From a virus (lineage: Duplodnaviria; Caudoviricetes), in the IMG/VR virus record IMGVR_UViG_3300048582_000047, positions 1 to 53,164 of that record: a stretch of 53,164 nt of DNA, one strand, 5' to 3'. Every line of letters begins with the position of its first letter. The first letter of the stretch is position 1. Both the position numbers and the translations under genes were made by a program. A model generated the notes under the pieces. That model worked only from the letters and a program-made list of their open reading frames with translations, was not told the DNA's origin and ran no database searches. This document shows, piece after piece, positions 706 through 53,164 of this stretch.

Positions 706-852
706 TCAGAGTCCTTTCCAGTAAGAGGCAACACAGACAGACACAAGCAAAGCCAGACCGACAACGATAGCGCCAATCGTAACGCTATCAGGCGCAGTTA
801 GCGCAGTATCTACAAGGCAAGCTACGTTATCCCAAGCGCAGACAGTTTTCAT
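706..852 (-). CDS. Small membrane peptide (MKTVCAWDNV...VTIGAIVVGLALLVSVCVASYWKGL, 48 aa)
   Basis: Not in ORF track; manual translation, GAAGGGA RBS, one hydrophobic helix. Confidence 0.65.
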   Translation of the reverse strand: MKTVCAWDNVACLVDTALTAPDSVTIGAIVVGLALLVSVCVASYWKGL

Positions 853-1297: not shown

Positions 1298-1341
1298 GGG
1301 GCTAGTCATTCTGACTGCCTATAGACAGCCGAAGGCTAGTC
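1298..1341 (-). other. Double-hairpin element, copy A
   Basis: GACTAGCC-TTC-GGCTGTC TATA GGC A GTC-AGAAT-GAC TA GCC CC. Confidence 0.75.
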
Positions 1342-1635: not shown

Positions 1636-3093
1636 TTAGATGCAAGCCAATTCAGGCGTTATGTCTAGCAATTCCAGGAAATCGGGCAGTCTTTCCGGTT
1701 CCCCTTGGGCGTTAATCTGGTAGTTATCGCGCAGCGTCCTTTCTTTTGTTGTGACAAAGGCAAGATAGGGAGTCGGACTCCTTTCTTCCATCTTAATCCA
1801 TTGCAGAGTCGTTGTCGTTTTCACTTGATAAGCTATGTCAGCCTTTTCTTTAGCCTCAATAGCCTCTTTAAATTCATCGGAGTCTTCGTGATAGTATTCC
1901 CCTTCAAAATAAGTTACGTCACAATGACTCTGGTGATAGTAATCCCCATTGTAATAAACACACTCAGACTCAAGCTGATACTCGCAATCTACATCAAGGA
2001 TATATCCATTTCTGTCCAAGTATCTTTCTGTTGCAATATCACCGTTTCCAGTTGTATAAGCTTCATCCTGTCGGATATATGAGTCCATCAATTCGGAATA
2101 AATATAGTCGTTTGACAAGCAACATTGACAAACACAATTCCCAGAATCCACTTGGGTCAATTCTTCGGAAGTATACCCCTCACAAAACTCGCAATAGTTT
2201 TGTGGTTCAACATAAATAAAGCCTTCAGTTGAACGGCAGCGAATGTTACCGTCGCCTAGTATGAAATAATCCCCAATATCTTCGCAAAATTCGCAATCGT
2301 CCAAGTAGGGCATAAGATACCCTCCGGGGTGGTCAATCTTTCTGATTTTAGCGCCATCAATTCCTTTACTTGTGAATCCTTTTTCTCTAAGGTAATTCAC
2401 AAGTAACTCTGTTGCAGTATCATCCGCTGTATAAATATCAGAAAATCTTTTCTTATCGGGGTATGTAAGGACTCTAGCGCCGATAGTGTCTTTTCCTACC
2501 TGTTTAGCATATACAATTTCAATATCGCCCGCAGCATATACAATTGCCGGATGCTGGGTTGGCTTAGGGAAGTAATACCCTCTCATGCAAGATGAATCCA
2601 GTCTTTTGACGTAGCAATCAAATCCAAAACTGGAAAAGGATGGACTCCTTTTTGGCGTATGTTGTTCCTGATAAGCGAAGCGGAAAGACTCTTCATCCTT
2701 CCCCGTATGCAATTCAAACTCAACAGGTAGGAATTCTGCCTTCAGCTCAGACACACAAGACTCAATTCTGGCATCCGTCATCCAAGGAAAGATTTTCTTG
2801 AGGTATTTACCAGCTTTCATGGTTTGGGGTCGATTGCGATAAATATCAAGAATCGAAGTAAATCCCGTAATCATTCCGTCTTTATAATTTGGACGCAAAG
2901 CGTTACTAAGGGAATCAAAGACCTCAGTTGTAAAATCAGCTAATTCTACGTTATAAGGTCCAAATTGTTTTATATTGTTGTCAATTACGAAGTAGTAAAA
3001 GTCACGGCTAGCCATATAGCAATCCGATTCGGATTTAGAAAACACAAGAGCTTTATTTGCCGCTTTAATATGCTCAGGGATTTGAGACTCCAT
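1636..3093 (-). CDS. SCM-motif phage protein with Cys-rich C-terminal region (paralog of 8500-9408)
   Basis: 485 aa; DSSCMR...HPAIVYAAGD...ARVL...YLMPYLD, then CEFC/CQCC motifs. Confidence 0.8.
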   Translation of the reverse strand: MESQIPEHIKAANKALVFSKSESDCYMASRDFYYFVIDNNIKQFGPYNVELADFTTEVFDSLSNALRPNYKDGMITGFTSILDIYRNRPQTMKAGKYLKKIFPWMTDARIESCVSELKAEFLPVEFELHTGKDEESFRFAYQEQHTPKRSPSFSSFGFDCYVKRLDSSCMRGYYFPKPTQHPAIVYAAGDIEIVYAKQVGKDTIGARVLTYPDKKRFSDIYTADDTATELLVNYLREKGFTSKGIDGAKIRKIDHPGGYLMPYLDDCEFCEDIGDYFILGDGNIRCRSTEGFIYVEPQNYCEFCEGYTSEELTQVDSGNCVCQCCLSNDYIYSELMDSYIRQDEAYTTGNGDIATERYLDRNGYILDVDCEYQLESECVYYNGDYYHQSHCDVTYFEGEYYHEDSDEFKEAIEAKEKADIAYQVKTTTTLQWIKMEERSPTPYLAFVTTKERTLRDNYQINAQGEPERLPDFLELLDITPELACI

Positions 3094-3844: not shown

Positions 3845-3946
3845 CCCCACGAGGGAAATGAGCACCCCCACGAGGGAAATGTTCGCCTGCTGCCCCGCGC
3901 TATAGTTACCCCACCGAGGGGAATGAGCAGGGCCATAGGGGAAATG
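3845..3946 (+). repeat. Four copies of CCCCACGAGGGAAATG-like repeat
   Basis: Copies at 3845-3860 and 3866-3881 (identical), 3909-3925 and 3933-3946. Confidence 0.9.
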
Positions 3947-4022
3947 TTCGTCAAACTGAAACACTATGTTTCCATGTGTGTGATTGTGATAAAATTACAA
4001 CAGTTTCTCTTGTCGATTGTGT

Positions 4023-4051
4023 TTGACGAATCACCTGTGACCGTGTATACA
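4023..4051 (+). promoter_or_regulatory. sigma70-type promoter with overlapping GANTC site
   Basis: TTGACG-17 nt-TATACA; CGAATCA at 4027-4033. Confidence 0.75.
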
Positions 4052-4083
4052 GAATACAACGAAACGCAAAAGGAATTACGCAA

Positions 4084-4284
4084 ATGCCTAAGTATTCTAA
4101 GCAGACTTACGAAATGGTTGCTGCAAGCATCTACTCTACCTTTCTGTCCGCAGAAAGCTTTGGACACCCAACTACAATCAAACACCTAGAAAACCTATCA
4201 GAAGATTTGTCAAGCAAGTTTGCAGACAATAATCCCAACTTTAAGCGTGATTTGTTTATGAAAGCTTGTGGTTTTATTGGGTAG
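4084..4284 (+). CDS. Hypothetical early protein
   Basis: AAAGGA RBS; C-terminal DNNPNFKRDLFMKACG motif recurrent in phage early proteins. Confidence 0.8.
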   Translation: MPKYSKQTYEMVAASIYSTFLSAESFGHPTTIKHLENLSEDLSSKFADNNPNFKRDLFMKACGFIG

Positions 4285-4398
4285 TCAGAAAAAAGACAAA
4301 GCCAAGTTTTTGTAGGAATTTTTGTCAGTTACAACTCGTCAGAAAAAAGTCAAACCAAAAGGGGTCCCATTTCGAGGGACGAGAAAGGGTTTACCACA

Positions 4399-4665
4399 GT
4401 GATCGAACAAACAATCCTGTTGTCTAGTGCATGGAAAGACTGGTTGGAAATCCGTCCACACTTTTCCTTGCGCTTTGGTCAATACTTCATCAATCAACAC
4501 ACGGAAGGATACACTAACGCAAGCGTCTTCTATGAAACTGACCCTGAAAAAGCTTATACAGAACTTCTGTGGGAAATTTGTTCAGGTCAACTCGACGGAA
4601 AACTTGTTGACACGAGGGGTCCCACAGGGTATAGTAGTGAAACGAATCAAACAGGAGGCGCATAA
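4399..4665 (+). CDS. Hypothetical protein
   Basis: 88 aa with LRFGQYF motif; GAAAGGG RBS. Confidence 0.7.
   Translation: MIEQTILLSSAWKDWLEIRPHFSLRFGQYFINQHTEGYTNASVFYETDPEKAYTELLWEICSGQLDGKLVDTRGPTGYSSETNQTGGA
4607..4635 (+). promoter_or_regulatory. sigma70-type promoter
   Basis: TTGACA-17 nt-TATAGT. Confidence 0.85.
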
Positions 4666-4699
4666 ACGCAAATCCACAAGAAATATAAGGAGAACTAAT

Positions 4700-5695
4700 A
4701 TGGCTGGCCGTAATTACGATCTTGCTGAAATGTTGACTTATAAGCGGCCAGATGGTTCCAAGTATCAGACTAAATTCTGCAATCGCTATCTTCGCCCCGT
4801 TATGGGTGAACCTGACCTTTTTGGTAACTATGTCAAGATCATAGGCCACAAACCTAATGTAGCCTTCATGGCTCACCACGACACAGTTCATAAGGATTCA
4901 GGTAAGCAGATTGTTGTCCGTGAAGGTAATTTCTACAAAGCACACCACACGTCTAACTGCCTAGGTGCTGACTGCACTACTGGCGTCTATATCATTCTCA
5001 AAATGATCGAGGCTAAAGTTCCAGGTGTTTATGTTGTTCACGGTGCAGAAGAAATTGGTTGTATTGGTGCTGCTGGTATGGTTGCATCTAATCCTGACTG
5101 GATTTCTCATGTAGATTTTGCCATCAGCTTTGACCGTAAAGGTTATGACTCAATTATCACTCACCAGTTGAGTGAGCGCACTTGCTCTGAGGATTTTGCA
5201 GACAGTCTTGCAAATATTCTTGACATGGATTACAAAGCAGACGCTAGTGGTGTTTACACTGACTCTAATGAGTATCGTTCTGTTATTGCAGAGTGCACTA
5301 ATCTTTCTGTTGGTTACTTTTGCCAGCACACCAAAGCAGAGACGCAAGACATCAACTTTGTCGAAATGCTGATTGACCAACTTATCAAAGCTGACTGGTC
5401 TTCTCTTGTTGTCGCTCGTGATCCGTCTGTTACTGAGAAAACCTATAGTAGTCGTAACTGGTGGCATGACAAGTGGGATTACGAGGATAACTCCAAATCT
5501 TACTACAGCGGTCCTAAAGAAGTTCACCGTATGATTGATCCAGAACACAAAGATATGGAGGATATGGTAGACCTTATCAAGAACAATCCAGTAGAGATTG
5601 CTAGGTTGCTCAAAGATATTGGTTACGATGCTTACGACCTTGTTGACGAAGTGTATAACTATAAGAGGAATCCTGACGATGAAGCCGGTTTCTGA
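4700..5695 (+). CDS. Zn-dependent M28/M20-like peptidase
   Basis: AHHDTV, LGADCTTG, AEEIGCIG, ISFDR, NLSVGY..QHT motifs; start moved to ATG 4700 after AAGGAG. Confidence 0.85.
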   Translation: MAGRNYDLAEMLTYKRPDGSKYQTKFCNRYLRPVMGEPDLFGNYVKIIGHKPNVAFMAHHDTVHKDSGKQIVVREGNFYKAHHTSNCLGADCTTGVYIILKMIEAKVPGVYVVHGAEEIGCIGAAGMVASNPDWISHVDFAISFDRKGYDSIITHQLSERTCSEDFADSLANILDMDYKADASGVYTDSNEYRSVIAECTNLSVGYFCQHTKAETQDINFVEMLIDQLIKADWSSLVVARDPSVTEKTYSSRNWWHDKWDYEDNSKSYYSGPKEVHRMIDPEHKDMEDMVDLIKNNPVEIARLLKDIGYDAYDLVDEVYNYKRNPDDEAGF

Positions 5696-5816
5696 AAATT
5701 TTCGTCAGTTCCGAGGGGGGCCTAGCATCTACCGTCAGGGGGGTCCCATGTCGATTCCCCTTGACGAATCACTGATCGACATGCTAGAAGACTGTATCAA
5801 CTCAGGAGAGCAATCG

Positions 5817-6056
5817 ATGTTCAACCCTCTGACTGTAGGCCGCAACAAGTTCACTGTCGAAGTTACCAAGCAAGACGGTAGCTTTGGCACTATTACTGGT
5901 AAACTGTTCGCTGACAACTTTACTGGTTCTGACAACGAAGTCCTGGCTTATACACTTGAACTTCTAGAGAAAGACCTTGTGCCAGTCTATACCGACAAAG
6001 GTTGGCGCTCTTTCTACCAGACTAAAGTTGTGTCGTTCAAATTCGGGGATAACTGA
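5817..6056 (+). CDS. Small WYL/SH3-like protein
   Basis: TKQDGS...KGWRSF; start at ATG 5817 after AGGAG; TTGACG at 5761 upstream. Confidence 0.6.
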   Translation: MFNPLTVGRNKFTVEVTKQDGSFGTITGKLFADNFTGSDNEVLAYTLELLEKDLVPVYTDKGWRSFYQTKVVSFKFGDN

Positions 6057-17277: not shown

Positions 17278-17933
17278 CTAAACTCAGCGCAAAACTAATC
17301 GCGCTGACACAACCGCTTATTGAGCTACGGGTTCCTAATACCGAGGGACTCGTAGCTTACTGCGCTAGGGTTAGCAATCCACAACACCAAGATAAGGAAC
17401 TAGGTTCTCTACTAGACTACTGCATCAGGAATAAACATTGGTCCGTTTTTGAAATGGCAAACGCTGTTGTAGAGGTAGAAGCCCCTCGTGACATTAGCCG
17501 TCAACTTCTTCGTCATCGGTCTTTTAGTTTCCAGGAATTTAGTCAGCGTTACTCTGATGAAATTGAATTTACTGATCGAGAGTTCCGTAGGCAAGATACC
17601 AAGAACCGGCAGAATAGCGTTGATGATCTACCAGAGGCTATATATAATGAAGCCCAAGGCATCGCTACTGTCAACAAGGAAACTGTTCAAGCGAACTATG
17701 AGTGGATGCGTAAGCAAGGTGTAGCAAAAGAGTGTGCTAGGGTAATCCTTCCCGAAGGTCTTACTATGTCCCGCCTATATGTGAATGGAAATTTGAGGTC
17801 ATGGCTCACCTACCTAGAAGTTCGGGATGACCCTGGCGTTACTCAGTGGGAACACGTCCTACTGGCGAGGAAAATCAGGGAGGCACTAGAACCAGCCTTT
17901 CCTAATGTATTGAAAAGAGCGTTGGATGACTAA
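17274..17933 (+). CDS. thyX: FAD-dependent thymidylate synthase
   Basis: HWSVFE, RQLLRHRSFSFQEFSQRY (RHRx7S). Confidence 0.97.
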   Translation: MTKLSAKLIALTQPLIELRVPNTEGLVAYCARVSNPQHQDKELGSLLDYCIRNKHWSVFEMANAVVEVEAPRDISRQLLRHRSFSFQEFSQRYSDEIEFTDREFRRQDTKNRQNSVDDLPEAIYNEAQGIATVNKETVQANYEWMRKQGVAKECARVILPEGLTMSRLYVNGNLRSWLTYLEVRDDPGVTQWEHVLLARKIREALEPAFPNVLKRALDD

Positions 17934-18642
17934 GTATATTCTTTTTGACGGAGACGTTTTGTGCTACCGATCAGCTTGGGCGGAACAGGAGTCCGAGACA
18001 GAAGAGGCTCTACTTAAGCTTGACGAGTTGATCGGTGATATTTTTGAGGAAGTAGACCCTTATGGCACAAAAAGCAACAGAAAGTTCTTCCTCACTGGAA
18101 AAGGTAACTTTCGTTATGACATTGCCAAAACCGCAGTCTACAAAGGAAACAGAAAAGACACAGAGAAACCAAAGCACCTTGAAGCACTCCGACAACACTT
18201 GATCTTCAAGTATGATGCTCTAGTCACTCAGAACTGTGAAGCAGACGATGCTATCGGTATTCATGCTAACTTTTACGGTTATGATCGTTCTGTGATTGTC
18301 TCTATCGACAAAGACTTTGAACAACTACCTACCACTATCTTTAACCCTAGCAAGTGGACTTGGAAGACAATTGACCCTTGGACTGCCACTAAGAACTTCT
18401 ACAAGCAAATCCTTATGGGTGATCGAGTAGACAACATTATTGGTCTCTATGGTATTGGCCCCGTGAAAGCGGAAAAGTTTCTAGAAGGTTGCGATAGTGA
18501 GAAAGCTTTGTATTGGGCTTGTGTTGAAGCTTACGGAGAAACTGATCTAGGTGATACTACGTCAGAAGAGCGAGTGCTAGAGAACGGTAGGTTGTTGTGG
18601 ATACAGAGGTTTAACGGTGAAATATGGCAACCCCCGGAGTAA
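17926..18642 (+). CDS. 5'-3' exonuclease (T7 gp6/FEN-like)
   Basis: FDGD, YKGNR, EADD, SIDKD, GDRVDNIIG..GIG. Confidence 0.93.
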   Translation: MTKYILFDGDVLCYRSAWAEQESETEEALLKLDELIGDIFEEVDPYGTKSNRKFFLTGKGNFRYDIAKTAVYKGNRKDTEKPKHLEALRQHLIFKYDALVTQNCEADDAIGIHANFYGYDRSVIVSIDKDFEQLPTTIFNPSKWTWKTIDPWTATKNFYKQILMGDRVDNIIGLYGIGPVKAEKFLEGCDSEKALYWACVEAYGETDLGDTTSEERVLENGRLLWIQRFNGEIWQPPE

Positions 18643-19004
18643 AACGTAACCCGACAAACATTAGTCGTAACAATAAGCAACGCGGTCGTTCAATGCAACA
18701 AGAGGTTAGGGAGGCTATCCTAACTAAGTTCCCCACGTTGCAACCTGATGACTGTAGATCAACTTCTTCCGGTGCCCAAGGTGAAGACGTTCAGTTGTCC
18801 CCCGCTGCCAGGAAACTACTACCAATCCAAATTGAGTGCAAAAGGGTTAAATCTGCCATTGGGATTTACAAGTGGTATGGGCAAGCCAAGGCACATGGGC
18901 CACACGAGCCTGTTGTCTTTATGCGGGCAGACCGTGAGATACCCCTTGTAATCCTGAGTGTAGATGCTTACTTAGAGTTATTGAAGAAAGCGAGTGAGAA
19001 ATGA
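18624..19004 (+). CDS. PD-(D/E)XK endonuclease / Holliday junction resolvase
   Basis: KQRGR..Q, GEDVQL, IECK, EPVVF. Confidence 0.8.
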   Translation: MATPGVKRNPTNISRNNKQRGRSMQQEVREAILTKFPTLQPDDCRSTSSGAQGEDVQLSPAARKLLPIQIECKRVKSAIGIYKWYGQAKAHGPHEPVVFMRADREIPLVILSVDAYLELLKKASEK

Positions 19005-21260: not shown

Positions 21261-21743
21261 ATGGGTAAGCGAGAAGAGACTAAGAAAGACCGTCATCCGC
21301 TAACTAAACACGGTCACAGAAAATCTAACAACGGTAAGCCGACAGTAGAATATCAGATTTGGTCGGGTATCCTCAAAAGGTGTAGAAACCTCAAGTGCAA
21401 TATCTACCAATACTACGGGGGTCGGGGTATTACTTTTGACCCTCGTTGGACAGAGTTCCAAAACTTTTTAGACGATGTTGGTTTCAAACCTACGGATAAA
21501 GATGGATTGGACCGTATAAACAACTCTCTAGGTTACTACAAAGAAAATGTTAAATGGGCCACTCAAGCTGAGCAAAACAGAAACAAAAGCAATAACATTT
21601 ATCTAGACGGCGTGTGTTTAAAAGATTGGTGTATGTCAAAGGGATTTAACTACAAAACTGTTTGGCGTTGGTTTGTTCTTGAAGGTAAGACAAAAGAGTA
21701 TCTACTAGAGAGGGGCGAAGTGCTATGGGGAAAAGGGAACTAG
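21261..21743 (+). CDS. Free-standing HNH homing endonuclease
   Basis: W..I.KRC, YGGRGI, LDRINN..GY..ENV.WAT...QNRN. Confidence 0.9.
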   Translation: MGKREETKKDRHPLTKHGHRKSNNGKPTVEYQIWSGILKRCRNLKCNIYQYYGGRGITFDPRWTEFQNFLDDVGFKPTDKDGLDRINNSLGYYKENVKWATQAEQNRNKSNNIYLDGVCLKDWCMSKGFNYKTVWRWFVLEGKTKEYLLERGEVLWGKGN

Positions 21744-39787: not shown

Positions 39788-40315
39788 CTAAATTGGGTAT
39801 CTGTTGTTTTTTGATACGTTTAAGTCACCGGGTAACACTTGTAAGTTCCACGGGACATGGAGTCCACAAACGTTCTTTCCTCGTAAGGGGACAATGTGGT
39901 CTACGTGGTAAACCTCCCCCGTAACAGCCTTTAAATCTGCGCAAAGCCAATAAAAGTTCTCTATAAGCTTTAGATGCTCTTCTGTAAGCCATCTCGGGGT
40001 TGCTTTTAGTTTTTGCGATCTACGTGAAGCCTCTCTACAAGCTTTTTTATGTTTGTAGTTTTTAGTATCTTTATCCTCAGCGTAACTGTTTTTAGCGGTG
40101 TTAAGCCTATATAGCCTAAAACTCTCGTCACTTTTATAGCGAGCATTTTCGTAAGACTTAACCCTTTCTTTGTTACGTAAAGACCAAAGTTTTTTATATT
40201 CCCTATTACAAGAGATACATCTAGAGCTAAGTTTACCTTTTACGAGGTAAAAACAATTAGCCCCTTTTTGTTCTTTGCATAGGGAACAGTGTCTAGAGAC
40301 CACCACGTTAATCAA
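39788..40315 (-). CDS. HNH endonuclease inserted in head operon
   Basis: CxxC zinc-finger, ATPRW, YHVDHIVPLRG..VCGLHVPWNLQ...N..K.N; true start uncertain. Confidence 0.9.
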   Translation of the reverse strand: MINVVVSRHCSLCKEQKGANCFYLVKGKLSSRCISCNREYKKLWSLRNKERVKSYENARYKSDESFRLYRLNTAKNSYAEDKDTKNYKHKKACREASRRSQKLKATPRWLTEEHLKLIENFYWLCADLKAVTGEVYHVDHIVPLRGKNVCGLHVPWNLQVLPGDLNVSKNNRYPI

Positions 40316-40316
40316 A

Positions 40317-41012
40317 CTACTTTTTGTAGGTTTTGTTGATGAGGGCAAGACCTTCTTTAGTCTTGGCTACCTCTGCATAAGCTTGTTGGTAGGTAACTTT
40401 GTGGGTTTCTTGGAAAGTTTTAACCAACTCGTCAAGCTTGCCCGATGCGTCCTTAAGTTCTTCGGTAGCGTCAGTCTTACCTTTCTCTGTGAGAAGCATT
40501 GCAAACAGAGCATCGGCAGCAATGAGCATTTCCAGGAGTTCGGCGTCGTCACCAATCGACTTAAGCAGTTTACCACGTTGGTCAGCACTACCCTTAAAAT
40601 TAGGAAGCTTTTCATCAGCGCGTTTACGGAGTTCTTCGGCTTCTTTAGCCTTTTCCAACTCTTCTAGTTGTTTGAGGACTGGTGCGGGGATAGCTGACTT
40701 AGCAACCTTTTCACCGTCAAAGTCCATCATTTCTTCTTTTGGCCTCGACTTTTCAATCTCAGCAGCTTCAAACTCTTCCACCTTAGCTTTAAGCGTTTCC
40801 ACTTCGGCAGCAACAGTCTCAAGTTCTACAATCTTGGTTTTCAGCGTTTCAACTTCTTGAGCAGCGTCGGCAAGTTGTTTTTCCATTTGTTCCTTAGTCT
40901 CATCGGACATTTCGGAATTTCCTTTTCGTTTAAGTAAAGTGACCTTTGCGAGAGGATCGTCCCCCGCGTCTACGAGAGAAACCTCAAAAAGATCAAGTTG
41001 AGTGAGTTCCAT
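40317..41012 (-). CDS. Scaffold protein
   Basis: EVSLVD...PLAKV.L.KR then Glu/Lys coiled coil. Confidence 0.8.
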   Translation of the reverse strand: MELTQLDLFEVSLVDAGDDPLAKVTLLKRKGNSEMSDETKEQMEKQLADAAQEVETLKTKIVELETVAAEVETLKAKVEEFEAAEIEKSRPKEEMMDFDGEKVAKSAIPAPVLKQLEELEKAKEAEELRKRADEKLPNFKGSADQRGKLLKSIGDDAELLEMLIAADALFAMLLTEKGKTDATEELKDASGKLDELVKTFQETHKVTYQQAYAEVAKTKEGLALINKTYKK

Positions 41013-42477: not shown

Positions 42478-43698
42478 TCAATAGAATGGAGAACCTGTTA
42501 ATACAGGGGAGTTATCGGGGGAACCAGAAACAACTTGTGGATCAGGGTCACCAATCAAGTCAAATAAACCGTTAGGTAACCCTTCAAAGGGTGTATTGTT
42601 AAATTGAGCATCAAGGACAAGTCCAGCAAAAGGACTACCCTCTATCGTAATAGATGTTCCTACGCTAACCGTCTGTGCAAGAGCAGCAAGAGAAGAGACA
42701 GAAGAAATTAATGCTGATCTGTTACGACGAACCCCTGCAATAAGGTTAGCAAGGCTATTAGAAGTTATTGCTACTTGTCTAGTGGAGGATTTTGTCCTTA
42801 CTGCTGCAACAGTGCTGGCGGAAGTTATACCCACTACTCTGGGACGAGTAATTGTCCTATTTACCGCAAGAGAAGAGACAGAAGAGATTACCGCTGCTCT
42901 ATTTTGAGAACCAGGTGTGGTATATGCAGCCGTCAGAATAGAAACAGAGTTTATAGCAGAGGTTCTATTTCTTGTTACCGTATACGCAGCGGAAACTGTG
43001 CTGGTAGAAGCAGCAAGAGTCTGCCTGTTACGAGTAATCTGACGAAGAGCAGCAACCGTGCTACTAGAGTTAACTACAACAGCGGCACGTCTAGTAATAG
43101 TCCTGTTAACAATAACAGTGGAAGAGGAGTCTATCGCAACTACTCTACTCTGTGCACCAGAGGTGGTATACGCAGCCGTTAAACTAGAGGCAGAGGATAT
43201 TGCAACCGCTCTGCTCTTAACAGTTTGAGACAGGACAGCAAGGGTGCTAGTGGAGGACACAAGTGCCTGTCTAGTTCTTGTGACTTGTCTTAAGGCAGAA
43301 AGTGTGCTGACAGAAGTTACAGCGGTTTGTCTGTTGAGAGTTGATCTTGGTAATACAGCAAGAGTGCTAATCGAAGCAGCAAGGGCTTGACGATTACGAA
43401 TAACCCCCGCTAAGACAGAAAGTGTGCTTGTCGAGTTAACAGCAGCTTGTCTATCCTTTAGCACCTGCCTTTCGACAGTAACTGTGCTATTAGAGGTTGC
43501 TGCCACTTGCCTGTTAGAAGTTATTCTCCTAGAGACAACCACACCAGAGGTAGAGGCTATTGCAGCGGAACGATCAACAGAACCGGCTACAGGTGGCCCA
43601 AAGAAAGCATCTAGTATTAATTGACTTGCGAGTGTTTCATTGGACCATAGAGCCGCCGCACCTATGCCCCCAGGAAACTGACGAAAATCACTAGCCAT
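42478..43698 (-). CDS. Repetitive fibrous protein (15 x ~20 aa repeats)
   Basis: R-x-x-[AV]-x-x-S-x-S-[TS]-[LV] units. Confidence 0.8.
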   Translation of the reverse strand: MASDFRQFPGGIGAAALWSNETLASQLILDAFFGPPVAGSVDRSAAIASTSGVVVSRRITSNRQVAATSNSTVTVERQVLKDRQAAVNSTSTLSVLAGVIRNRQALAASISTLAVLPRSTLNRQTAVTSVSTLSALRQVTRTRQALVSSTSTLAVLSQTVKSRAVAISSASSLTAAYTTSGAQSRVVAIDSSSTVIVNRTITRRAAVVVNSSSTVAALRQITRNRQTLAASTSTVSAAYTVTRNRTSAINSVSILTAAYTTPGSQNRAAVISSVSSLAVNRTITRPRVVGITSASTVAAVRTKSSTRQVAITSNSLANLIAGVRRNRSALISSVSSLAALAQTVSVGTSITIEGSPFAGLVLDAQFNNTPFEGLPNGLFDLIGDPDPQVVSGSPDNSPVLTGSPFY

Positions 43699-47804: not shown

Positions 47805-48183
47805 TAGACTGACCCTTCAAGTTCAACTTGGCGAGCAGGTCATCAATAGCACTGGTGTTCTCGTCAAGGCTATTCGGGTCTTGCTCTTCAACGATAAGTT
47901 TCTCACTCCAACCAAGTTTAGTCTTGGCAACAAGTTCTAAAGCCTTCATGTCACGGTCAGCAAGAGCTTTCTCCATGATAGCAGAACCAATAGCTTGATG
48001 GAGTTGTGCCCTTGCTGCAACAATATCTTTACGGTAGAGTTTATAGAAAGTTGTGAGAGATTGGGGGCCATTGCGCATATCTTTGGTTTTATCAAAGATA
48101 ACGGAAACAGCAACACCGGCCAGAACCATGCTCTGCACAGTCTCACCAATTTTCATATCATATGGGAGGGAGAGTTGGTTCAT
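47788..48183 (-). CDS. terS: Terminase small subunit
   Basis: Immediately upstream of and overlapping terL; helical. Confidence 0.7.
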   Translation of the reverse strand: MNQLSLPYDMKIGETVQSMVLAGVAVSVIFDKTKDMRNGPQSLTTFYKLYRKDIVAARAQLHQAIGSAIMEKALADRDMKALELVAKTKLGWSEKLIVEEQDPNSLDENTSAIDDLLAKLNLKGQSNGDAE

Positions 48184-48433
48184 GATAACCTGTTATGTTA
48201 TACAGTAACGCCTGTAGGACAGGAGAGGTTTTCCTGCCACGACGCAATTATAATTCTACGGTAAAAAGAGATAATTAGCCGTTTCCGCTTGAGAAAGCCA
48301 ACAAAACAAAGCGGCGTGACTTATTAGGTCTACTCCAAACTTCCCACGGCAAACAGGAAGAGGGAATTAGTTTATAGGGAGTGAGGATTTTACCCTTACA
48401 GCAACATGCCCTATATCAGAGGTTGCCTAACGA

Positions 48434-48510
48434 TGGTGCTCCTGTCAGGAATTGAACCTGCTTAACCGCGTTACAAAGGCGGGCCTCATCCGGCTAAAGG
48501 TGTCAAGAGC
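48434..48510 (-). tRNA. tRNA-Thr(TGT), atypical
   Basis: Acceptor GCTCTTG/CAGGAGC, A73, CCA; loop TTTGTAA; C31.C39, no U8, G.A at T-stem base. Confidence 0.7.
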
Positions 48511-48511
48511 A

Positions 48512-49747
48512 TTACTTAGGGTTGATTCTCGCTGCATGTAACTCAAGAAGAGTTTGTGTCTCAGCGGGGGTCAAGATAGTGTTGTCTGTAACGGTAATAT
48601 TAGTATTCTTAGGGTCGCTGTAGATGGAGAAAGCTTTATTACCCTTAACAATAACGTTATTAGAGGGCCTACCATCCTTGTGAGTGAGTAAGTGAATCCA
48701 AGGGCGACCTAAATGTGGGGCACTCTTACCGTAAATGTTTAACACCAAGTTGTTTTCGACCACAGAGTTGGTTGCACCGTTAATAGTGATACCGTGCCAG
48801 TGGTCTGTTACAATCAGGTTGTCCTTAACAACCAGGTTATTCCAGAAACCATCAAAGAAACCTAAACCTTGACACTGAATACTGTCAGTAATCAACGGAT
48901 GATCTTTCGGTCCTGTCCATGAAACCAGAGTATTACCTACAATCTCAAGACCCTCAAATGGGGTAGTTCCCAGGTTAAACGACTGCAACATGTCATTGTG
49001 GTTATCGTTTACTTGAAAATTGTCGGCGGCGTAGTTATTATACACCTTAGCACTTGAGAAGGCTCTATAGGCGTCTCCACAGAAGCCCCTAAGCTTGTTA
49101 CCCTCTAAGACAACATTGCTACCTACAGTGAAACCAAATCCAACACCAGTAGCAAGGCAGTTCTTGATGGAACCTCCAATAGAACCATTATCCCCAACAG
49201 AACCAGCGTTATTCCACTTAGCTTTGTCCCAAGCGAAGTAGTCTGTATCTGGATGACCCCTAAATTCACAATCTAGAACGTGAAACCTACGATTGTCTTG
49301 ATAACCTACAAGAGCAGTCCATTGTTTATTGCGGTCTACAGAAAGATCGTCCCAAATGGACAGTTGTTCAACAGTAATGTCCGAGGCGTTCTGCAACAGA
49401 ACTTGTTGGATTCTAGCTTTACGCCTATTAACAGCCTTTACTGTAATCTTGCCGGGGGGCCTAAAGCCATCAAAACGTAAACGACCATAAGCACCATCTC
49501 TAAGATAAAGAATAGTGTCTTTGGTCGCTTTTCTAGCTGCCCCTACAACATCATCACCGGGGTTCAAGAAAACCTCATTGGGCGCTGACTCAGGTGGGGT
49601 GATAATAGGTGGCGAAACTACTGGGGGTGGGGAAACTACAGAAGGCTGTTCCTCCACTGTAGGATAACTGACGGTAATCTTGTGTTCAAAGGTGGCACCA
49701 TCAGCCAATGTCCACTTAGTTGTTCGACTTGTAGTTTTCATTGCCAT
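48512..49747 (-). CDS. Right-handed parallel beta-helix protein (pectin-lyase-like / depolymerase-like)
   Basis: Stacked xxNx repeats, HNDMLQSF, WHGITI; Pro-rich linker; start ATG 49747 after GAGGTG. Confidence 0.8.
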   Translation of the reverse strand: MAMKTTSRTTKWTLADGATFEHKITVSYPTVEEQPSVVSPPPVVSPPIITPPESAPNEVFLNPGDDVVGAARKATKDTILYLRDGAYGRLRFDGFRPPGKITVKAVNRRKARIQQVLLQNASDITVEQLSIWDDLSVDRNKQWTALVGYQDNRRFHVLDCEFRGHPDTDYFAWDKAKWNNAGSVGDNGSIGGSIKNCLATGVGFGFTVGSNVVLEGNKLRGFCGDAYRAFSSAKVYNNYAADNFQVNDNHNDMLQSFNLGTTPFEGLEIVGNTLVSWTGPKDHPLITDSIQCQGLGFFDGFWNNLVVKDNLIVTDHWHGITINGATNSVVENNLVLNIYGKSAPHLGRPWIHLLTHKDGRPSNNVIVKGNKAFSIYSDPKNTNITVTDNTILTPAETQTLLELHAARINPK

Positions 49748-49765
49748 ATTCAATACCACCTCTAT

Positions 49766-49841
49766 TGGCGAGGGTGGCTGGAATCGAACCAACGCTGACG
49801 CGGTTTTGGAGACCGCCGCTCTACCTCTGAGCTACACCGAC
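49766..49841 (-). tRNA. tRNA-Trp(CCA) with two acceptor-stem mismatches
   Basis: TAGCTCAG D arm, GCGGT-CTCCAAA-ACCGC, GTTGG-TTCGATT-CCAGC, G73, CCA. Confidence 0.85.
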
Positions 49842-49959
49842 AAATATACTATAACCTACTTACTGACTCGCCCCACTCTAAAGCTAAAGCGCGCGGCTAA
49901 AGTTAGAGGCCAGTTAGAAAATAGGGTGGCGGTTTATGCTTCCGCCAAAGCTTAGTCTA

Positions 49960-50187
49960 TTAGTTGTCGCGCTGTTCAATCAGGTCGATGAGGGCAGCAG
50001 CACCAACAGCACCAACCATGTTTTGACCATCCGGTTGGTCATTCGACAGAGCACAAGTTACATCTGCACGAACGGTATAGTTAGAACCATCAACAGGGAT
50101 GGTTTCACATCCATTGACGTTACCAGCAAAAGCAGCACCAGCAAACAGAGCGAAGGTAGCTGCGGTAGCAAGGAAGAACTTTTTCAT
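49960..50187 (-). CDS. Small secreted protein with signal peptide
   Basis: MKKFFLATAATFALFAGAAFA, two Cys, codon usage like the capsid genes. Confidence 0.75.
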   Translation of the reverse strand: MKKFFLATAATFALFAGAAFAGNVNGCETIPVDGSNYTVRADVTCALSNDQPDGQNMVGAVGAAALIDLIEQRDN

Positions 50188-50208
50188 TTGTTAAGCTTTC
50201 TTTATCGG

Positions 50209-50252
50209 GGGTCTAATCGCAGGGCGATTGACTTAAGCAAACTTTCGCTTGC
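50209..50252 (-). other. Double-hairpin element, copy C
   Basis: GCAAGC-GAAA-GTTTGC TTAA GTC A ATCGC-CCT-GCGAT TA GAC CC. Confidence 0.7.
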
Positions 50253-50363
50253 GGGTTAAATTGTTAGTTGACTTTAGAATAGGTGAAACAAAGAGCATCG
50301 GCTACGAAGCAACCTGAGTCAATCAAAGTATTGGGGTCTTGCGTAGGTTGCTCTTTGTTTAAT

Positions 50364-50393
50364 AGTATATAGTGCAGAAAAGTCATTTGTCAA
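50364..50393 (-). promoter_or_regulatory. sigma70-type promoter heading the late arm
   Basis: TTGACA-18 nt-TATACT. Confidence 0.75.
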
Positions 50394-50448
50394 GTAGCTG
50401 GCAAAAATAAATTTTGTGTAGGGTGCTTTTTTTCGATAATCACCCCCA

Positions 50449-50497
50449 GATCAGTTTAAGTAAACTGTCTATAGGCAGCGGCCTTGCCGCTAGCCCC
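50449..50497 (+). other. Double-hairpin element, copy D
   Basis: GATCAGTTT-AAGT-AAACTGTC TATA GGC A GCGGC-CTT-GCCGC TA GCC CC. Confidence 0.75.
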
Positions 50498-51050
50498 ACT
50501 GTTCTGCCATAGCCTCGGCAATTCCTTGATATGTTCTACTACGTTCTTTCCACCTATCGGGTGAGGGGGCCATCTTATGCACCCTAGCTTCTCTACCCTC
50601 AACGATATTAGTTGGGACAAGTTTAGGTAGGCCCTTTAGCCACAAGCAGGTAGCCTTGGTTTCTCCATGTCCAAACTGCCAAGGTTGAATAATCTGATCT
50701 GGTTTACGAATACGAGAACTGATAATGGAAATAGGGTTTTCCAGAGCAATCTTGGCAACAGGAGCATTAAGCAGTAAACGAACGAACTCTAAGGCTTCCT
50801 CTTGAACACCGGAGGCTTGTTTAGCAGCAAAGTGTCTAGCACCACTAACAGCAAGGTGAGTGCAAGGGGGGTGAGCAATCATAAAATCCCAACCATGCAA
50901 TTCATCGAGAATACCTAAAATATCCCCTTTGTAGTGGTAAGGGCTGTTATCTTCACTATCCAGAAGGTCACAAGACCAAGCGTCATGTCCCTTAGACCTA
51001 AAGGCTTCCCTAACTCGTCCTGAATACTCACAGGCAACTAATACTTTCAT
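50490..51050 (-). CDS. Short C5-cytosine DNA methyltransferase-like protein
   Basis: ACEYSG, HPPC, LENP, K.TCLW, RS.T..GIAEAMAEQWG. Confidence 0.85.
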   Translation of the reverse strand: MKVLVACEYSGRVREAFRSKGHDAWSCDLLDSEDNSPYHYKGDILGILDELHGWDFMIAHPPCTHLAVSGARHFAAKQASGVQEEALEFVRLLLNAPVAKIALENPISIISSRIRKPDQIIQPWQFGHGETKATCLWLKGLPKLVPTNIVEGREARVHKMAPSPDRWKERSRTYQGIAEAMAEQWG

Positions 51051-51123
51051 CTTTGGCTTTCTTTAACTTTGTTGGTTTTTTCTGTAGTATAGACGCTCTA
51101 ACTAAGAGTTAACTAAAGAGCAT

Positions 51124-51384
51124 TTAACAAATAGTAATGAACCCTTTAGCCCACTCCTCAACAAGAATAGGGTTAGGAGTAATAACTTCCCAACCAGCAT
51201 CAGGTAACACCCTAAAGCGGTCTGGTGCATCTACAAAAGACATAACAACCAAACTGTGACCTTCAAAGTCAAAAGCATAAGGTGGGGTGCCAGGGCCTTC
51301 GATATTAGAGTAAGTAAAGGTTAGACACTGGCCTTGAGTCTCTAGATCAATGGTTCCTTGGTCAAACTCGAAGAGAGTTGTCAA
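51124..51384 (-). CDS. Hypothetical protein
   Basis: TTG start after AGGAG. Confidence 0.6.
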   Translation of the reverse strand: MTTLFEFDQGTIDLETQGQCLTFTYSNIEGPGTPPYAFDFEGHSLVVMSFVDAPDRFRVLPDAGWEVITPNPILVEEWAKGFITIC

Positions 51385-51792
51385 AAGGGTGGCTCCTGAT
51401 TAGGGAAGGTTGGCTTCCATGCTACATAAGGTATTGGTTCGATAGTCTTGTGTGCAGCAGGTGATTCTTTGATACCCATCTGATTTAGGAACAGGTGTAG
51501 GTCTACAGGAAGGCTTTCCATAGAGAATCCGTTACTATTGCGTTAAAAACAGAAGTATTGACGAAAACTTATCAGTTTTCTTGGACAACAAGAAGATTAA
51601 GAGTATTCTAGTAGATTTTCCTACTATAATTGACTAAAACTACTAGTTATGAGTAAACTTATAGTTGCTGACTCAGATTCTAGAACAAACTATAAGTGAC
51701 TAACCTACTAGGTGCTGATTCAGATTGGAGTTATCCTTAATACGAGAGTCTTTAATACTATATGTATTGTTATTACTAGTAGTAGTTAGTAG

Positions 51793-52233
51793 TTAACTTA
51801 TGAGTTGTAGGTTTTCTATTCTTGTATTCATCTTATCACCGTCAATACAGATGATCCTGCTAGTGGGTCTATCACCTTTATGATAAATCCACACTAATGT
51901 TTTAGTAGTATAAACTTTACCAGATAATACTATTGAAGGGACACCCTCTTTAATACTCGTCTGAGCGACTTTACCCCCAAGCCTCTTAGCAAAGGAGTGC
52001 ATAGCTGCTGGACTAGAAAAAGAACTCTTTGTTCTAAATTTCCAATGCAACTTACCTGTGTCTTTATTGTAAGCAAATATGTTCTTTAGTTCTTCTTGTG
52101 TAGGGTAGTCCCCAGACACCAGAGGGATATTTCTATATGGGGTGTTGGGTTCTTTTCCAAACCTGTTCCACACGATGGCTTTTTTCACTGTTGCTCCATA
52201 AACTTTAAGCTTTGTTCCGGTTAACATAAGCAT
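51793..52233 (-). CDS. Degenerate HNH endonuclease-like protein
   Basis: F.YN.DTG.L.W, LVWIYH.G, I.CIDGDK.NTRIENL; the usual His is replaced by Cys. Confidence 0.7.
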   Translation of the reverse strand: MLMLTGTKLKVYGATVKKAIVWNRFGKEPNTPYRNIPLVSGDYPTQEELKNIFAYNKDTGKLHWKFRTKSSFSSPAAMHSFAKRLGGKVAQTSIKEGVPSIVLSGKVYTTKTLVWIYHKGDRPTSRIICIDGDKMNTRIENLQLIS

Positions 52234-52330
52234 GATTTTCAGAATTTCAAGGGGTAGATGACAAGAATATTATTCTTTTTTTTAGCCCAAGGTTGGAACG
52301 TTGTTCTTCCGTTATCGGTGCATCTTTGCT

Positions 52331-52359
52331 AAGTTACTGATTCTTTTACACCTTGTCAA
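52331..52359 (-). promoter_or_regulatory. sigma70-like promoter with GANTC in spacer
   Basis: TTGACA-17 nt-TAACTT. Confidence 0.55.
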
Positions 52360-52807
52360 ATTTTCCTTGGATATATAGCTGCCAACCACCCGCCAACGAA
52401 TCACCCCGTCAGAATCTCAAGGGTCCCAGGCACATCCAAGCTGCGTTGTCAATAGGCAATCGCATCTGGACCTATCAAATATCAATCGAGTGTGTCATAT
52501 ATGCATCAGTATGAGTCCAGATGGGACTGTTGCACCAGGGTCACACTACATGAGATACTTGCGATAAGGTATTATAATGCTTGACAAATTAGAAACAGGC
52601 GAGTGATTCGGTTAGCAATAACTGGCTATGTATACACCTTTAACATAGGGTATCTGGACTCATATGGTATAGCTGGACAACAGGCTAACACCATTGAATC
52701 CCCTTGCTATTGCACCATAGTCCTACAGCACCAGAGAGGACCGCCAAGGGGTCACTAGCATAGGCCAGGCTATGGGGGTAGCCTGTAAGGTTAGCACCTC
52801 TGTAGCA

Positions 52808-52854
52808 GGGGCTAATCGCAAGGCGATTGCCTATAGACAGCCTTGCGGCTAGTC
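52808..52854 (-). other. Double-hairpin element, copy B
   Basis: GACTAGCC-GCAA-GGCTGTC TATA GGC A ATCGC-CTT-GCGAT TA GCC CC. Confidence 0.75.
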
Positions 52855-52901
52855 CGCTGTTTCAGAAGATAGGTAATAGGTATTGACCTAGTAATCTGAA
52901 C

Positions 52902-52926
52902 AAAAGAAAAGGGCGCTATGCGCCCT
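52902..52926 (-). terminator. Intrinsic terminator (allele of 481-506)
   Basis: AGGGCGC-ATA-GCGCCCT + TTTCTTTT. Confidence 0.8.
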
Positions 52927-52950
52927 AGTCAGTAGATCAAGCTGGAAAGG

Positions 52951-53124
52951 CTATTGCCCTAGGTCATCAAGGCTGGATGGTTCACACATAACGCCATTGC
53001 CTTCGGTCATGCCTAGCAACAGGTTATCGGCGATCTGGACACAATCGCCCCAAGACTCATAGGCGGCAATCTCTATTGGCAAGCCTTGAACGGGGTAGAA
53101 TACCAGAATCCATACTTTGAGCAT
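52951..53124 (-). CDS. Diverged allele of 531-704
   Basis: Identical N-half, substituted C-half, frame intact. Confidence 0.7.
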   Translation of the reverse strand: MLKVWILVFYPVQGLPIEIAAYESWGDCVQIADNLLLGMTEGNGVMCEPSSLDDLGQ

Positions 53125-53164
53125 CTCAGAGTCCTTTCCAGTAAGAGGCAACACAGACAGACAC

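Follow-up and report, generated by a model that had tools for sequence, protein, structure and literature searches.

A short double-hairpin element, present in four copies in the window (the whole 53,164-nt stretch of phage DNA analysed here), resembles a small palindromic insertion element more than it does a conserved regulatory RNA, because related phages lack most of the copies. Units are gained or lost whole, between genes and in one case inside another hairpin's loop; they are present in either orientation and have had their halves exchanged between copies. The reading that we tentatively prefer, with slightly less than even confidence, is that these are small, lineage-specific, non-autonomous insertion elements, built as nested-palindrome double hairpins and acting at the DNA level; their dyad symmetry and near-exclusive Watson-Crick pairing point to a palindrome that works as DNA. 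From about five or six sites we infer that the units may be mobile.

Reading all four copies confirmed the positions and strands originally predicted for them (Table 1). The element is 44–49 nt long in this phage (44–54 nt if the member found in a relative is included) and the copies have a GC content of 50–57%. Hairpin 1 features 3 bp, a bulged T, a stem of 4–6 bp and a loop of 3–4 nt. The linker that follows is TATA in three copies and TTAA in one, and forms with its neighbours a palindromic hexamer, CTATAG or CTTAAG. Hairpin 2 is composed of G-K-C, a stem of 5–6 bp starting with an A-U pair, a 3-nt loop, one bulged A and G-M-C, and is followed by CC. The A that follows GGC is paired with the T that precedes A-GCC, which brings the stem of hairpin 2 to 8–9 bp with a single bulged A.

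Table 1. Positions of the double-hairpin elements, of candidate members in related phages and of neighbouring features.
Feature	Position	Strand	Score with covariance model R1 (bits)	Remarks
IMG/VR record IMGVR_UViG_3300048582_000047				53,164 nt; complete-looking virus record (Duplodnaviria; Caudoviricetes)
Copy A	1298-1341	-	57.1	between 71-aa ORF (1387-1602) and 115-aa ORF (930-1277)
Copy B	50209-50252	-	52.9	ends 21 nt 5' of the ATG of a 75-aa signal-peptide ORF (49960-50187)
Copy C	50449-50497	+	62.4	opposite orientation to surrounding genes
Copy D	52808-52854	-	68.1	non-coding DNA, 55 nt downstream of canonical terminator
L206 member	3005-3057		15.8	~54 nt; bulged T, bulged A, GGCA...TAGCC; opposite orientation
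L136 member	722-765		15.3	GACA...TTTAGTC
L132 member	5214-5274		8.6	hairpin 2 GGCAAGCG-AATCAA-CGCTTAGCC
Sigma-70-type promoter	50364-50393	-		TTGACA-18-TATACT; between copies C and B
Canonical intrinsic terminator	52910-52926	-		7-bp GC-rich stem then TTTCTTTTGT; just upstream of copy D
Right contig end	52385-53164			direct repeat of 1-744, 77-92% identical

In copy A these parts read GAC-T-AGCC/GGCT-GTC, TATA and GGCAGTCA-GAA-TGACT-A-GCC, with the tail CC. Copy B has an unbulged hairpin 1 (GCAAGC-GAAA-GTTTGC), the TTAA linker and a hairpin 2 of GTCAATCGC-CCT-GCGATT-A-GAC, and copy D has the hairpin 1 of A with a GCAA loop and the hairpin 2 stem of B. The two linkers, the alternation of the outer stem between GGC/GCC and GTC/GAC, and the three different inner stems were all as predicted, and the same is true of the GNRA loops in two copies (GCAA in D and GAAA in B) and the bulged T in three (A, D and C). 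The 13-mer CTGTCTATAGGCA is exact in copies A, C and D, which also have the TAGCCCC tail, and the pattern TATAGGCA-N(9-25)-TAGCCCC is matched three times in the 53,164 nt and not once in any of 100 shuffles. The 3' tails of the elements read CCCCTAAC, CCCCCGAT, CCCCACTG and CCCCTGCT, and the halves are bordered as CAACT/GAC, GCG/GAC, CCCA/GAT and ...GCC/CC. In the four-copy alignment the conserved nucleotides are those of the junction, the bulges and the linker, and not those of the stems.

All four copies fold as two hairpins with RNA z-scores of −2.4 to −5.1, and as single-stranded DNA both strands of every copy form the double hairpin (z −2.85 to −5.1). Pairing is kept while the sequence changes, as had been claimed: 96.7% of the 61 cells in the four-copy alignment are paired, 8 of the 16 base pairs show compensatory changes, and none of 500 shuffles matched the observed pairing and covariation, with slid-partner controls pairing at 20–43%. 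Nearly all of the aligned pairs are Watson-Crick pairs and hardly any are G-U. The two hairpins mirror each other, so that the same architecture appears on the reverse strand, and either strand presents in turn a hairpin with a bulged T, the centre CTWWAG and a hairpin with a bulged A. Scored with the forward covariance model, the reverse strands reach 29.5 bits for D and 25.9 bits for A. In copy D the halves are also complementary to each other, so that a long single hairpin is in competition with the pair of short hairpins. For A and D, the sequence of hairpin 1 is similar to the reverse complement of hairpin 2; the halves of C and of B have the same architecture without being related to each other in sequence. 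The copies are moreover mosaic. The stem of hairpin 1 is identical in A and D, that of hairpin 2 is identical in D and B save for one compensatory outer pair, and copy C is separated from D by three compensatory pairs and has the same loop. Since a single branching history cannot give this mosaic, halves have been exchanged or converted between copies.

The phage has the gene content of a siphovirus (terminase, portal, major head, tape measure and tail proteins) and carries genes of its own for replication and nucleotide metabolism, namely a split DNA polymerase A, a primase-helicase, ribonucleotide reductase, ThyX, PhoH, MazG and several methyltransferases. The nucleases recognised with PHROGs are endonuclease VII-like (ORF 39788-40348), RusA-like (ORF 18624-19004) and of the HNH type (ORFs 51793-52233 and 21261-21743), and no RNA polymerase, integrase or transposase was found among 65 ORFs compared with PHROGs or 20 ORFs compared with Pfam. 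The closest isolate by terminase is Roseobacter phage CRP-6 (63.6%); the cyanobacterial HIP1 octamer, with 0 copies, gives no hint of the host. IMG/VR lists the record as linear. Because the locus repeated at the right end is single-copy in three relatives, where it lies between genes of the two contig ends, the contig is probably one round of a circular or permuted map that overlaps itself with a second strain variant, in which case the true genome would measure ~52.4 kb. On the joined map the four copies lie within ~3.5 kb, among small minus-strand genes with long intergenic spacers, and the cluster adjoins a conserved ~450-nt non-coding region and is upstream of the terminase genes.

Within this region copies B and C flank the promoter (50393-50364, minus strand), which agrees with the prediction of copies on either side of it, and the promoter and the leader that follows it are conserved in relatives. 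The prediction that two copies end ~20 nt before start codons also held, for A at 20 nt and for B at 21 nt before an ATG. The TAGCCCC tail of copy C contains the TAG stop codon (50490-50492) of a methyltransferase-like ORF (50490-51050, minus strand). Copy D is the one that lies in the block differing between the two genome-end copies, and ~570 nt without a gene follow it. The terminator upstream of D (52926-52910) is preceded by GACT, the foot sequence of hairpin 1, begins AGGGCGC, and shows that ordinary terminators are in use by the phage.

A search of Rfam 15 with the whole 53,164 nt at the gathering threshold returned only two tRNAs, and at E≤5 the 7,716 nt covering the four copies gave a tRNA, a chance mir-29 match and a ctRNA match on the terminator, with none on the elements. 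The exact-core pattern had 0 matches in viral contigs and, in a scan of 185,579 species genomes, only four single matches that lacked the structure. A relaxed pattern matched at least 119 stretches of viral contigs, which is chance level, and covariance model R1 applied to 80 of the relaxed-pattern stretches and the four genome matches reached at best 25 bits, with the structure absent. A terminase search gave 80 loci, and R1 with default filters found nothing below E=1 outside the record in these loci and the record together (777,195 nt). With the filters off, the six closest loci (69,414 nt) yielded three weak matches with E-values of 0.12–5.7, listed in Table 1 under the loci L206, L136 and L132. 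These putative homologues rest on architecture and synteny and are weak by covariance-model score. The member in L206, the nearest relative, has exactly the architecture of the four copies and z-scores of −6.3 as RNA and −7.1 as DNA. The elements thus match no named Rfam family and do have a few diverged relatives in the closest phages, so that neither of the outcomes put forward beforehand as refuting the claim was seen.

Further searches added little. R1 gave three matches at E≤10 in the whole records of five relatives, and neither of the two inspected has two hairpins. Blastn of copy D against 50,697 phage records produced one chance match (E=4), a search via the neighbouring 71-aa protein produced one weak locus in viral contigs and two in metagenome contigs, none of them useful, and a TAGCCC-anchored fold screen produced only antisense matches in terminase genes. 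Structure descriptors were too permissive, with 45 matches against 18–37 in shuffles, 179 against 76, and 13 against 3–16. Of the sequencing runs listed for the phage none is an RNA run, and the single DNA run contains a small share. A candidate in L133 was rejected since the D-arm of a predicted tRNA-Asn accounts for its second hairpin, and a match at 132-181 of L206 is doubtful, being upstream of the terminator and not at site D. In the complete relative G001 (loci L213–L215), a single hairpin at 17869-17894, GAT-T-AGCA...TGCT-GTC followed by TACAGCC, is similar to hairpin 1 together with the core (18.2 bits); situated in the replication module, it lacks a second hairpin and is probably a chance resemblance. 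The counts are thus four members in the 53,164-nt phage versus one convincing member each in G001 (51,410 nt), G002 and L206, and the relatives' members are mostly at sites different from those of the four copies. In the searches made, the family appears confined to one lineage and to a few uncultured phages, which limits its reach.

Comparison with the relatives distinguishes filled from empty sites. Site A is the only one shared with a relative. A diverged homologue (hairpin 2 at 5246-5274) lies in L132 between homologues of the same two ORFs; three compensatory pairs separate its hairpin 2 from that of copy A, and the exact 13-mer is missing. In L136 two hairpins remain at site A and the foot of hairpin 2 is lost, so that two hairpins persist there in three phages. 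Copy B is absent from all three relatives that hold its site (L206, L136 and L132), in which the flanks CTTAA(A)CC ... AAAGAAA-ATG are kept with 3–22 nt between them, as against the 44-nt copy here; L132 has an unrelated small hairpin instead. The empty site of L206 aligns with both flanks of B (CCCG...AAAG), and because this junction is ambiguous, part of the atypical hairpin 1 of B may derive from the target.

At site C the same methyltransferase-like gene ends ...CAGTGGGGCTAA (TAA) in L132 and L206 and is followed by unrelated DNA, and in the present phage it ends ...GGGGCTAG, letters that already form the end of the element. Similarity with the relatives breaks off at 50491 and is taken up again at 50446 or 50373, a gap that copy C fills exactly. 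Copy D belongs to a block that is replaced in the left end copy, where a different bulged hairpin is found, so it is present in one of the two end copies; it is also absent from the aligned stretch of L206, L132 and L136. At sites C and D, then, the flanking sequence has been replaced and not simply interrupted. One metagenome DNA run contains a relative's contig whose alignment covers both sides of B and of C and skips 96 and 95 nt, respectively. The loop of a terminator-like hairpin provides a further filled and empty pair: L132 reads CTTTGGGGGTTGG directly into TTGGATAAACCCC without interruption, and L206 holds the whole ~54-nt element between two TTGG, where it folds nested within the outer stem of the terminator-like hairpin. 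The junction repeats, TTGG/TTGG in L206 and CCC(G)...AAAG at B, can each be aligned in more than one way, and no consistent target-site duplication was found at the junctions compared. The positions taken up are thus varied, being upstream of a ribosome-binding site for A and B, across a stop codon and inverted for C, after a terminator for D, and within a hairpin loop for the L206 member.

We favour insertion, loss and recombination as a DNA unit because of the mirror symmetry, the Watson-Crick pairing, the mosaic halves and a core that is exact in the paralogues but not in the orthologue. Variation of the copies in place, in orientation and in presence among relatives likewise argues for insertion over a cis-acting RNA with one job. 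The parts that are recognised or recombined would be the hairpin feet and the centre, GNC-T-AR ... CTGTC-TATA-GGCA ... YT-A-GNC-CC, and the upper stems and loops would be free to change provided that pairing holds. Spread would occur at the DNA level, and one candidate route is a hairpin or cruciform formed on single-stranded or supercoiled DNA and acted on by a structure-specific enzyme; template switching and recombination at the 13-nt core are other candidates. Because no transposase is present among the ORFs screened, any such enzyme would be another phage nuclease or a host protein. The copies would be passively co-transcribed, and their stable RNA hairpins may incidentally protect or punctuate mRNAs. 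Several observations speak against insertion. There is no transposase, RAYT or integrase among the 65 ORFs compared with PHROGs and the 20 compared with Pfam, the ends bear no tag, and the junctions compared show no consistent target-site duplication. The stems differ strongly between copies yet every one of them is intact, which is the pattern of structure under selection and not of recent copy-and-paste. In addition, the homologues in relatives score weakly with the covariance model, the flanks at C and D are replaced, and the family is tiny.

One alternative is a cis-acting structured RNA, which would be the target of a double-strand-specific RNase or of an RNA-binding protein of phage or host and would serve as a processing site or as a 5' or 3' stabiliser of mRNAs from the small genes of the region. 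Perfectly paired stems with half of their pairs covarying, conserved nucleotides in the junction, bulges and linker, the persistence of two hairpins at site A in three phages, the co-orientation of three of the four copies with the genes, and the placement of A and B ~20 nt 5' of start codons with the ribosome-binding site left free would all suit such an RNA. We nevertheless consider it rather unlikely. Copy C and the L206 member are inverted and D stands after a terminator with no gene for ~570 nt, B is dispensable in all three relatives, G-U pairs are nearly absent from an architecture that is symmetric on both strands, Rfam holds no match, and the core is lost in the L132 orthologue. Of the original interpretation as a structured signal, the covarying double hairpin is therefore real, but its role as a conserved RNA leader or processing signal is not supported, because positions and orientations vary, most sites are empty and the core is not kept in the orthologue. 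The elements might instead be functional DNA sites, with cruciforms or single-stranded double hairpins recognised by a phage protein as a recombination hot spot, a replication-priming signal or a packaging signal. In favour of this are the dyad symmetry and the folding of both DNA strands, the phage's genes for endonuclease VII-like, RusA-like and HNH nucleases, the position of C and D where homology with relatives breaks off, and the clustering of the copies in ~3.5 kb of the joined map, by the conserved ~450-nt non-coding region and upstream of the terminase genes. A pac signal or an origin, being essential, should however be kept at one site, but only site A is shared and the complete relative G001 has one diverged member, which makes this explanation improbable in our judgement.

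Two other explanations were weighed. Independent intergenic hairpins, such as remnants of terminators, might have been partly homogenised by gene conversion, so that there would be no element as such. The terminator at 52926-52910, with GACT and then AGGGCGC, does resemble both the foot of hairpin 1 and one half of the L206 member, an unrelated small hairpin occupies site B in L132, and at site D the left end copy shows a bulged hairpin of another sort. It is hard, on the other hand, to obtain from unrelated hairpins the 3-bp feet, the 5' bulged T, the 3' bulged A and the short linker that recur in the four copies and in L206, and the L206 member is a clean block insertion; we hold this explanation to be quite improbable. 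Least credible of all, and scarcely to be entertained, is a decoy RNA that mimics a CRISPR repeat. It depends on a presumed likeness between the 14-nt centre CTGTC-TATA-GGCAG of A, C and D, which is exact in three of the four copies, and the stem-loop of one class of CRISPR repeats. No CRISPR-repeat family or other Rfam family was matched at E≤5, the centre is absent from B and from the L206 member, and the central stem competes with the flanking hairpins such that the minimum-energy fold never uses it in A, B or C.

The RNase III hairpins of T7-group phages are intergenic, contain a bulge or internal loop, and stand just before ribosome-binding sites or after stop codons, and in these respects the present elements, also intergenic bulged hairpins near ribosome-binding sites or stop codons, are like them. 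The T7-group hairpins are, however, single, long, all in the sense orientation and conserved in position, whereas the present elements vary in orientation and have mostly empty sites in relatives. Miniature elements of the IS200/IS605 type carry two subterminal hairpins in the same orientation on one strand and depend on a Y1 transposase; derivation from them was rejected, as the hairpins here are mirror images (5' bulged T versus 3' bulged A) and no transposase was found among the ORFs screened. N4-type hairpin promoters are DNA hairpins used by a virion-carried single-subunit RNA polymerase, and no RNA polymerase family was seen among the 65 ORFs, so the DNA hairpin promoter that had also been proposed was dropped. 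The put RNA of HK022 consists of two stem-loops in the transcript shortly downstream of a promoter and in a fixed orientation. A put-type antiterminator was rejected since B alone among the copies has a promoter ahead of it, C is inverted, D comes after a terminator, and all three relatives that keep the promoter and leader lack B. Intrinsic terminators were rejected too, in line with the earlier remark that a U-tract is lacking: no T-run follows any copy, and none of the five terminator-like sites in 48000-53164 is an element.

A literature search for comparable elements in phage genomes found only the PeSL cassettes of T4-like phages, described in PMC4122927 as conserved intergenic stem-loop motifs at the borders of variable genes in a plastic region, where they are points of exchange. 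The PeSL cassettes so described include an early promoter and a terminator, and the present elements have neither a promoter-like site nor a T-run; moreover, two members are not cassette borders but clean insertions, flanked by homologous sequence on either side. PeSL was rejected, as 0 of the 12 promoter-like sites in 48000-53164 fall inside an element.

Closer parallels come from outside phages. REP doublets, or REPINs, are presented in PMC3116915 as short imperfect palindromes in an inverted pair around a short spacer that form one long hairpin or two, and REPs are portrayed in PMC3733652 as intergenic, often transcribed and regarded as non-autonomous mobile DNA. Copy D shows both of the folds attributed to REPINs in that description. 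The differences are that the feet of the phage elements bear no GTAG or CGTC tag, that no RAYT gene was found (65 ORFs with PHROGs, 20 with Pfam), that there are four copies in a phage versus tens to hundreds in a chromosome, and that the halves of copies C and B are mutually unrelated. Chromosomal copies of REP type were sought by the core scan of the genome collection, which covers this exact core only and gave the four single unstructured matches mentioned above. The double-hairpin or repetitive hairpin-forming elements of mitochondria, in the accounts of PMC10085805 and PMC2800124, comprise two adjacent hairpins, are mostly intergenic, differ in number among close relatives, and are thought to be mobile by a mechanism that is not known and that leaves no flanking duplications. 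The phage elements, being short two-hairpin units that are intergenic and patchy in relatives, correspond to these accounts in kind, and common descent is not implied; the mitochondrial examples described are from fungi and sponges, a different kind of genome, and no sequence relationship is expected. The fission-yeast elements, as reported there, were found by requiring a GC content above 75%, compared with 50–57% in the phage copies. It is conceivable, if on balance unlikely, that the elements are a virus-borne counterpart of REPINs or of the mitochondrial elements: a ~45-nt non-autonomous unit would move within and between phage genomes, the bulged feet of its mirror-image hairpins would be recognised by a putative enzyme (a host protein or a structure-specific nuclease of the phage), and insertion would prefer DNA that is exposed as a single strand or in a loop.

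Bacterial chromosomes and organelle genomes are well known to contain short hairpin-forming repeats. If the units do move, they would count among the smallest known viral mobile units and would give a handle on the shuffling of intergenic hairpins and gene cassettes in plastic phage regions. If they are protein-binding RNA or DNA sites instead, the bulged mirror-symmetric feet would constitute a compact recognition motif.

Several other features of the region were observed. The stretch at 50291-50446 (minus strand), which comprises a strong sigma-70-type promoter and a leader of ~110 nt, is 72–81% identical in relatives, with counterparts at 8098-8254 of L132, 8101-8224 of L136 and 2562-2694 of L206. 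A stem in the leader appears to covary (AAGAGCA...TGCTCTT versus AAGGGCA...TGCCCTT), and downstream of it are a small signal-peptide ORF, a terminator-like hairpin, one or more tRNA genes and the terminase genes. The arrangement may represent the leader of a late operon or a control of read-through. Both end copies contain a 7-bp hairpin, CAGGCTA...TAGCCTG, whose 6-nt loop reads CCCCCA in one copy and TGGGGG, its reverse complement, in the other (400-405 versus 52773-52778), a loop flip such as template switching produces in palindromes.

Some genes of the region are optional. The HNH endonuclease ORF (51793-52233) and a 426-aa beta-helix ORF (48512-49792) are skipped exactly by the metagenome contig of a relative, by 559–611 nt and 1,254 nt, respectively; L132 is without the HNH ORF at that place and L206 is without the 426-aa ORF. 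The listed TTG start of the 426-aa ORF is overlapped on the same strand by a tRNA-Trp gene (49766-49841), and the true start is probably further downstream. In L206 the match to the terminase large subunit (465 residues) spans 2.1 kb (3887-5995), with an interruption of ~700 nt that is perhaps an intron, an intein or an endonuclease gene. Elsewhere in the window, 41-nt direct repeats (CCCCACGAGGGAAATG...) occupy 3845-3950 in a divergent intergenic region of 1.3 kb, and repeats with a period of 60 nt are found at 42686-43512 inside a 406-aa ORF (42478-43698).
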